A stretch of 8,333 nt of DNA from a virus. Taxonomy: Duplodnaviria; Heunggongvirae; Uroviricota; Caudoviricetes. The stretch lies in IMG/VR virus record IMGVR_UViG_2698536369_000014; one strand, written 5' to 3'. Below the pieces are notes generated by a model that saw nothing but the letters and a program-made list of their open reading frames with translations, did not search any database and was not told the DNA's origin. Each line of letters starts with the position of its first letter. The stretch's first letter is position 1. Position numbers and translations under genes: made by a program. This document shows, piece after piece, positions 1 to 3,979 of this stretch.

Positions 1-85
1 AGGTAATGGCGTTATCACGGTAATGATTAACAGCCCATGACAGGCAGACGATGATGCAGATAACCAGAGCGGAGATAATCGCGGT
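1..85 (-). pseudogene. rzpD: Rz (i-spanin) fragment beginning at about codon 5, with no start codon, fused out of frame to the endolysin fragment; continues beyond the window start
   Basis: Reverse complement of 1-85 translates to [28 protein letters not shown], which matches my recollection of lambda/DLP12 Rz residues 5-32 ([12 protein letters not shown]...). No in-frame ATG lies upstream; the frame joins the lysozyme frame offset by one base at about 85/86. Confidence 0.6.
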
Positions 86-284
86 TATACGTTTTACCGA
101 GCATGATGTCTTTTCCTGTATGCCCGTGACATACAGTCCATACACCAACAATATCTTTGTATGGTATGTAGCTGACACCCTCCAGACCATCGTTACCACT
201 TGAGCCAGTGATTAACACTGATGCTATAGCAATTGCTCCGCCACCAATAGCAGCAGCAACGGCTTTTCGTAATGATGGAGGCAT
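86..284 (-). pseudogene. rrrD: SAR endolysin (phage 21 R-type lysozyme) 5' fragment, about 66 native codons then unrelated readthrough
   Basis: [27 protein letters not shown]...[33 protein letters not shown] matches the R21 N-terminus (SAR domain and E-D-T catalytic triad region). After GKTY the frame runs into out-of-frame Rz sequence and stops at 27. ATG at 282-284 overlaps the holin stop (TAATG). Confidence 0.75.
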
Positions 285-593: not shown

Positions 594-626
594 CAAAAAG
601 AAAAACGCCAGCGATTATTCTGGCGT
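594..626 (-). terminator. Intrinsic terminator on the minus strand, between the AppY-like gene and the holin
   Basis: 7-bp GC-rich stem ACGCCAG (605-611) / CTGGCGT (620-626) with an 8-nt loop, followed on the minus strand by TTTTTCTTTTT (plus-strand A-run 595-604). Confidence 0.55.
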
Positions 627-2921: not shown

Positions 2922-3446
2922 ATGAAGTTATGGCCTGTGTTGACTGGCATTGCACTCTCTTTCACTCTTATAGCATGTAAGGCCCCGACACCACCTAAAG
3001 GTGTGCAGCCGATTACAAATTTTGACGCCAACCGCTACCTCGGAAAATGGTATGAAATAGCTCGCCTCGAGAACCGGTTCGAACGTGGTCTGGAACAGGT
3101 CAGCGCTACTTATGGAAAACGGAACGACGGAGGGATTCGTGTACTTAACCGTGGATACGATCCAACGAAAAATAAATGGAGCGAGAGCGAAGGTAAAGCA
3201 TACTTTACTGGAGATACTAAAACTGCAGCGTTGAAGGTTTCGTTTTTTGGCCCCTTCTATGGTGGCTATAATGTAATCAAACTGGATGATGAGTATAAGT
3301 ATGCTCTTGTCAGTGGTCCGAACAGAGAATACCTATGGATTCTGGCAAGGACCCCAACTATTCCAGATAAAGTAAAAGCAGACTATGTGCGAACCGCTCA
3401 AAAGTTGGGATTCAATGTCAATGAATTATTATGGGTTAAACAATAA
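2922..3446 (+). CDS. Outer-membrane lipocalin lipoprotein, Blc-like, 174 aa
   Basis: Signal peptide with lipobox LIAC (Cys19). Motifs NFDANRYLGKWYEIARLENRFERGLE and KVSFFGPFYGGYNVI...YLWILARTPT align with E. coli Blc at roughly 55-60% identity by eye, so this looks like a diverged paralog, not chromosomal blc. Confidence 0.85.
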   Translation: MKLWPVLTGIALSFTLIACKAPTPPKGVQPITNFDANRYLGKWYEIARLENRFERGLEQVSATYGKRNDGGIRVLNRGYDPTKNKWSESEGKAYFTGDTKTAALKVSFFGPFYGGYNVIKLDDEYKYALVSGPNREYLWILARTPTIPDKVKADYVRTAQKLGFNVNELLWVKQ

Positions 3447-3472: not shown

Positions 3473-3502
3473 AGAAAAAAACCAGCCTTTGGGGAGGCTG
3501 GC
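3473..3502 (-). terminator. Intrinsic terminator on the minus strand about 100 nt downstream of Q (tR'-like)
   Basis: Stem CCAGCCT (3483-3489) / AGGCTGG (3496-3502), loop TTGGGG, followed on the minus strand by T7 (plus-strand A-run 3475-3481). No U-run on the plus strand, so it is unlikely to serve the Blc-like gene efficiently. Confidence 0.6.
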
Positions 3503-3601
3503 TAAATCAGGAAACAAGCTGTTATATGATAATAACTACGTTGCGATTCCAACATTTAAAATGTTAGACTAATGAGAATCAGACAGCAACTTTTCCTTTA
3601 A
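3503..3601 (-). promoter_or_regulatory. Putative late promoter pR' and Q-utilisation region
   Basis: Position only: between the Q stop and the tR'-like terminator, as in lambdoid phages. Candidate minus-strand hexamers TTGCTG-17 bp-TAACAT and TTGGAA-15 bp-TATCAT; not confidently assigned. Confidence 0.3.
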
Positions 3602-3979
3602 TTATTTCGAACAATCAGCATCCATCTCCAATCGGAGATCCAACACCATCAGCATACCCTCCACTACGCCCTCAGCTTTCTGGAGCATCCTGCCAACCCA
3701 ACAATCAGATCGCCCATGCTTACGTGCAAGCGCCATAAAAGTCATGCCGCCGACATAATAGTCCACCAATAAATCATGCAAATCGCTGTTGTTCTTTTTC
3801 AGACGGGCCATGCACCCGCAAATGATCATCGCGTCATCGTCACAACATTGTGGGCGAGATTTTACTTTTGAAGGAATTAATCCCTTAAAACCGGCGGCAA
3901 TGGACGACCAGGTCACATCTTCATGATTATTAGCCGCCCACGCTCCCCAACGCTCAAGACCCATCTGAATATCACGCAT
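3602..3979 (-). CDS. quuD: Late-gene antitermination protein Q (phage 82 / DLP12 QuuD type)
   Basis: [62 protein letters not shown]... is near-identical to K-12 QuuD as recalled. Start taken as the ATG at 3977-3979 (GGAG ribosome-binding site upstream), not the TTG-extended ORF ending at 3994. Confidence 0.9.

Follow-up and report, generated by a model that had tools for sequence, protein, structure and literature searches.

A 307-bp deletion in the lysis cassette of a DLP12/phage 21-type Escherichia coli prophage fuses the SAR endolysin gene to out-of-frame Rz and leaves the pinholin gene intact

The DNA analyzed here, a stretch of 8,333 bp hereafter called the window, is the reverse complement, base for base, of the complete E. 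coli draft contig CYBM01000060.1 (assembly GCA_001284545.1). It carries the right half of a DLP12/phage 21-type lambdoid E. coli prophage, comprising its late-regulatory and lysis end. Its minus-strand genes are arranged in the order Q, a moron block, the pinholin gene S, the SAR endolysin gene R and the spanin genes Rz/Rz1 (Table 1). The same prophage architecture was found over at least 80% of the window in 81 complete E. coli genomes, and the window region has a median of two and up to 10 matching places per E. coli genome.

Table 1. Features of the window and the evidence on which each was assigned.
Feature	Position	Strand	Evidence or remark
ybcK (cut by contig end), ybcL, ybcM, ybcN, ninE, ybcO, rusA, ylcG		minus	Listed in minus-strand order; ahead of Q
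Late-gene antiterminator Q, intact	3602..3979	minus	Pfam PF06530, positions 1-118 of 118, E 5e-50
Terminator-like hairpin at the position of lambda tR', about 100 nt past Q	3480..3503	minus	Consensus scan; assigned by position only
Blc-like lipocalin gene	2922-3446	plus (opposite)	In the moron block that separates Q from the lysis genes
YbgA-family gene, 319 aa	2729-1770	minus	2-thiouracil desulfurase/DUF523 and DUF1722; moron block
AraC-like moron gene	1427-688	minus	Between Q and the pinholin gene
Terminator-like hairpin with T-run, between the AraC-like and pinholin genes	605..626	minus	Consensus scan; pattern match only
Pinholin gene (essD / S21 type), intact, 71 aa	284..499	minus	ORF and Pfam PF04971
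5' remnant of the rrrD/R21 SAR endolysin gene, nt 1-199 (codons 1-66 and one base)	86..284	minus	Identity to RrrD of L001
Deletion junction, TA dinucleotide common to both flanks	86..87	minus	BLAST, flank comparison, MAFFT
Out-of-frame 3' part of the fusion ORF, 19 codons and TGA at 29-27	27..85	minus	Translated from Rz DNA, but not in the Rz frame
Rz (rzpD, i-spanin) coding DNA, codon 5 to about 33, cut by contig end	1..85	minus	Equals RzpD residues 5-32

An earlier note on this DNA had described the pinholin gene as intact, and this is borne out by a full-length match to PF04971 (Phage_holin_2_1, "Bacteriophage P21 holin S"; positions 1-63 of 64, E 2e-35, 120.9 bits against a cutoff of 26) and by the identity of the protein to EssD (WP_000839582.1) of intact relatives, including L001 (NZ_CP018206.1). 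The protein starts with MKSMDK and ends with KAARGE, and its gene is preceded by the Shine-Dalgarno sequence GGAGGTGAGG, which is of the GGAGG type. The dual-start motif described for S21-type pinholins (PMC9636201) is present as M1-K-S-M4, with Met1 and Met4 as the starts of a 71-aa antiholin and a 68-aa holin, respectively, and the last 21 nt at the 3' end of the gene equal the published cloning primer for phage 21 S68 (PMC9239132). Judged by its sequence, the pinholin of the window, a class II holin, would form nanometre-scale heptameric depolarizing channels. In a metagenome scaffold that carries the deletion described below (L008), pinholin codon 55 is changed from AAC to AAT (Asn, synonymous; window position 335), which is the only lysis-gene difference seen among the deletion carriers.

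The ATG of the next ORF, at window position 284, overlaps the end of the pinholin gene (ATGA-type overlap). This ORF (27-284, minus strand) encodes 85 aa, of which residues 1-66 are identical to RrrD of L001 and the other 19 are out of frame. The SAR domain is kept in the remnant (Gly/Ala-rich residues 8-27, identical to RrrD/R21), and a motif scan found the catalytic triad E35-X8-D44-X5-T50, in line with the E-X8-D-X5-T motif of SAR endolysins (PMC9239132). The lysozyme domain itself is incomplete: the remnant covers positions 3-37 of the 125 positions of the Pfam PF00959 model, and residues 67-165 of the 165-aa RrrD protein are deleted, with the 19 out-of-frame residues in their place. Because only 35 of 125 lysozyme-domain positions are kept, the 85-aa remnant should be inactive; with about 70% of the GH24 domain missing, it would not be able to degrade murein. 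The intact parent allele of relatives matches the structures 4ZPU (RrrD) and 3HDE (phage 21 lysozyme) over its whole length (residues 1-165, E about 1e-110), which identifies the parent gene as one for an R21-type SAR endolysin, as had been proposed. The fusion ORF does not count as a functional member of the R21/RrrD family but is what remains of a gene. That positions 86-284 might instead encode an alternative short protein family was considered and rejected, because the 90% cluster of the fusion protein is made up of RrrD fragments, namely contig-end fragments named "lysozyme RrrD, partial"; the exact 85-aa sequence has been deposited as "phage lysozome" and as "hypothetical protein".

The junction was mapped by comparison with two intact relatives. 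BLAST against L001 returned two collinear pieces that lie 307 bp apart in L001 and overlap by 2 nt in the window, and MAFFT alignment with the second relative, L009 (NZ_CM139235.1), showed the same single gap of 307 nt. The left flank ends at window position 86 and the right flank starts at position 87, leaving a 2-bp TA overlap: the left flank reads ...AAAACGTA[TA]CCAAAG..., the right flank ...ACAGAG[TA]ACCGCG... and the window ...AAAACGTATAACCGCG.... Retained rrrD sequence runs to nt 199, where codon 67 begins, and Rz sequence resumes at nt 13, where codon 5 begins. Thus rrrD lost nt 200-498, comprising codons 67-165 and the stop codon, and the ATGA overlap that holds the Rz start was lost together with Rz codons 1-4. 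The boundaries given in the earlier note (codon 66 of the endolysin, codon 5 of Rz, a junction at 85/86) are each exact against the intact relatives, and its estimate of a deletion of roughly 300 bp is now refined by both methods to 307 bp with TA microhomology. Its statement that most of R was removed also stands, while the share that was kept is about 40% rather than the 5' third it had named. As 307 cannot be divided by three, translation of the fusion passes out of the Rz frame, and the last 19 residues are indeed Rz DNA read in the wrong frame, as claimed. The identity of the DNA to intact cassettes is 99.8% to the left of the junction and 100% over the 87 nt to its right, and the match is therefore no chance resemblance. 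No longer direct repeats were found at the endpoints beyond TA and an imperfect GTA(T)ACC, and the 50-nt flanks match each other at 14 of 50 positions, which is the level expected by chance.

The window is a whole draft contig that ends 85 nt past the junction, inside Rz, a repeated prophage sequence. It could accordingly be asked whether the junction had arisen in short-read assembly, through a chimeric join or repeat collapse at the contig end, the real genome having an intact rrrD. Carriers of the deletion were sought by exact look-up of the 85-aa protein among 153 billion gene positions, and the protein was found on about 7-8 contigs. The carriers (L002-L008) comprise six NCBI draft E. coli assemblies (GCA_002226495.1, GCA_035819835.1, GCA_019548775.1, GCA_002510355.1, GCA_001284545.1 and GCA_002485275.1) and one ENA metagenome scaffold. 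An identical 33-nt junction string is present in 7/7 carrier contigs, four of which run on through Rz, Rz1 and bor/iss into Nu1. Compared with the window, the carrier contigs differ at one to four SNP positions and fall into five haplotypes; they are therefore independent samples of one clade with an inherited deletion rather than copies of one assembly. Moreover, an overlap of 2 bp is too short to make a de Bruijn, overlap or k-mer mis-join. Given the seven concordant contigs and this short overlap, an assembly artefact was rejected, its probability being close to negligible. The deletion is inherited in a small clade of strains.

The contigs break at a few recurrent places: the window and L004 end inside Rz or just past the fusion ORF, and L002, L003, L005 and L007 end inside Nu1/nohD. 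These positions suggest that the breaks in Rz and Nu1 are repeat-induced and that these genomes hold further lambdoid prophages with near-identical Rz and Nu1.

Beyond this clade, an 80-nt query spanning the junction, for which the E-value cutoff admitted continuous matches only, detected the junction in 0 of 5,426 complete E. coli genomes, of which 2,292 have both flanks about 387 bp apart, i.e. in the intact arrangement. The 80-nt junction query likewise had no match among 50,697 phage records, and isolated phages such as ev207, 2G7b, mEp332 and the PhiR series have an intact cassette with 97% identity. No exact junction patterns were found in GTDB species representatives or in JGI metagenomes; the look-up of the 85-aa protein was the one search that yielded carriers.

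These distribution data also bear on whether the 85-aa product might be a short protein retained by selection for some function, such as tuning the pinholin or other endolysins as a SAR peptide tethered to the membrane. The fusion ORF does keep its start, its translational overlap with S, the export/SAR domain and the catalytic triad, and the allele has persisted long enough for a few SNPs to arise within the clade. However, the exact protein occurs on only the few contigs named above in a search of that size, its 90% cluster otherwise consists of RrrD fragments at contig ends, its 19-residue tail is out-of-frame Rz, and the allele is in no complete E. coli genome or phage record searched. The divergence among carriers is too small for a selection test. 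We thus regard a selected function of the 85-aa product as very improbable and continue to treat the fusion ORF as a remnant of rrrD.

The deletion also affects the i-spanin gene. The Rz DNA in the window (85-1) includes the N-terminal transmembrane segment, and the Rz ATG, the first four codons and the upstream ribosome-binding region are absent from the window allele. The 307 bp that were lost had contained the ATG and codons 1-4, and the earlier statement that the Rz start was removed is therefore correct. Contiguity of the Rz match, on which that reading depended, is seen in the sister contigs, in which Rz shows no difference from RzpD between T5 and the stop codon; in L002, residues 5-153 are identical to RzpD up to the stop (Pfam PF03245, E 5e-54). 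Upstream of the junction, no stop codon interrupts the Rz frame over 38 codons, and a 187-codon ORF runs from a GTG at window position 199, with an ATG at position 190. No properly spaced Shine-Dalgarno sequence that could rescue an Rz start was found at any upstream in-frame GTG or ATG, and efficient translation of Rz is therefore unlikely; an N-terminally extended Rz may be made at a low level from the open upstream frame. In sister contigs, one public gene call is a 150-aa Rz (L002, 10197-10649) starting from an ATA created by the junction (window 83-88), and this call at an ATA codon is probably a gene-caller artefact. The o-spanin Rz1 lies outside the window. In L002 it is a complete, embedded 60-aa lipoprotein ORF in the +1 frame (MRKLKMMLCVMMLPLVVVGC...) with a lipobox Cys and a match to PF06085 (E 3e-20), and both Rz1 and bor are intact in the sister contigs.

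With regard to expression, Q is annotated as a 125-aa antiterminator in relatives and is presumed to be the activator of the S-R'-Rz' transcript, R' and Rz' being the truncated genes. A terminator-like hairpin lies immediately upstream of the pinholin gene, which points to a probable dependence on Q-antiterminated read-through; by analogy with lambdoid late operons, the pinholin is probably expressed only from read-through transcripts of this kind.

Work on S21-type cassettes provides the frame in which the lesion can be read. S21-type pinholins form heptameric channels of about 2 nm, which dissipate the proton motive force; SAR endolysins reach the membrane by Sec export and stay tethered there in an inactive state until this depolarization releases and activates them; and spanins act after the endolysin by disrupting the outer membrane (PMC9636201, PMC9239132). 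The S21 68 pinholin is lethal when triggered alone (PMC9239132). The 307-bp deletion, its endpoints, the reading frames and the inheritance of the lesion in a small clade are shown by the sequences. We consider it highly probable that the cassette, with an intact pinholin gene, an inactive lysozyme remnant and an Rz without its start, would support pinholin-driven killing without self-encoded lysis. One event of illegitimate recombination or slippage between two TA dinucleotides would have removed the 307 bp and left three products: the intact pinholin gene, the 85-aa fusion ORF (the SAR domain, the N-terminal catalytic lobe of the lysozyme and 19 nonsense residues) and a start-less Rz, which would be translated poorly or not at all. 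Should Q activate late transcription, the cell would die from the loss of the proton motive force caused by the pinholin, and neither wall degradation nor outer-membrane disruption would follow unless another prophage supplied an endolysin and an i-spanin. That the prophage would be unable to lyse its host by its own endolysin is a sound inference, and other prophages of the same genome could complement it.

The lysis cassette is not the only damaged part of the prophage. The AraC-like gene is frameshifted at about 1296-1303, where one T has been lost from a T8 run, splitting it into ORFs of 47 aa and 195 aa; the intact protein in relatives has 243 aa. The 195-aa ORF is present in all sister contigs with the 307-bp deletion. 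This second lesion in the same clade fits ongoing decay. In the two relatives with an intact cassette, this prophage type is in different states: L009 carries it at icd (9507-40877) with a full early region, in which iss is directly followed by a truncated tail-tip gene and the head and tail genes are absent. In L001 (10668-16308), Nu1, terminase and a frameshifted portal gene are found, and its left flank differs, with an inverse autotransporter where ybcK-ybcM would be.

Another view is that the deletion is real but without functional effect, either because the prophage was already defective or because R and Rz are supplied in trans by other lambdoid prophages. The degraded state of these close relatives (head and tail loss in L009, the portal frameshift in L001) and the AraC-like frameshift of the clade speak for the former, and the contig breaks in Rz and Nu1, which hint at extra copies in the same genomes, together with the several places matching the window region in E. 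coli genomes, speak for the latter. We regard absence of a functional effect as a genuine if lesser possibility; however, it is compatible with pinholin-driven killing without self-encoded lysis as the main explanation and limits only the phenotypic weight of the lesion. The reverse view, in which the deletion is adaptive and the pinholin-only module serves as a Q-controlled depolarizing switch for suicide or dormancy, the exported 85-aa SAR fragment perhaps modulating its triggering, seems to us very unlikely. If it were true, a pinholin-only switch could serve abortive infection or cell death without release of the cell contents. We prefer to interpret the lesion as decay of the killing function of the prophage, either neutral or of slight benefit.

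The affected cassette belongs to a well-known system. Its gene order and overlaps are the same as those of the S21-R21-Rz21/Rz1 cassette of phage 21, which it further resembles in the full-length P21 holin S match and dual start of the pinholin, in the parent endolysin (E 4e-110 against 3HDE) and in Rz and Rz1, which fall in the lambda/21 families. Different from phage 21, the cassette here lacks the 307 bp that span R codons 67-165 and Rz codons 1-4, and the genes that remain complete are those for the pinholin and, as seen in sister contigs, Rz1. The K-12 cryptic prophage DLP12 (essD-rrrD-rzpD/rzoD-borD) shares the lysis genes and the flanking genes ybcK, ybcL, ybcM, ybcN, ninE, ybcO, rusA, ylcG and Q; the RefSeq names in the relatives are accordingly essD, rrrD and rzpD, and the parent allele shares about 99% identity with the RrrD structure 4ZPU. 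Unlike in DLP12, the slot between Q and S is occupied here by the lipocalin / YbgA-family / AraC-like moron block; in K-12 DLP12 this slot holds nmpC. The integration site also differs, being icd in the closest complete genome. A literature search on DLP12 rrrD and essD found no papers.

The usual expectation is that the holin gene, as the most toxic one, is lost first. Here the holin is intact and the endolysin and i-spanin are hit, which sets this lesion apart from generic lysis-gene decay, albeit as a single instance. In that a small deletion disables a lethal function beside a second pseudogenizing lesion, the locus resembles the decay of the K-12 cryptic prophages (PMC3105296). Taken as a whole, the lesion is an ordinary pseudogenizing microhomology deletion in a well-known cassette, and the system is one that is already known.

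The value of the finding is mainly for annotation: the 85-aa database entries under the two names given above represent the deletion fusion and not a protein family, and the junction is a clade-specific PCR marker. Beyond this, it shows by what exact loss the endolysin and i-spanin of a DLP12/phage 21-type prophage became disabled in one E. coli clade. The resulting genotype, naturally pinholin-positive, endolysin-negative and i-spanin-negative, would lend itself to studying the effects of pinholin triggering on a cell that does not lyse, although a pinholin-only genotype is also easily built in the laboratory.
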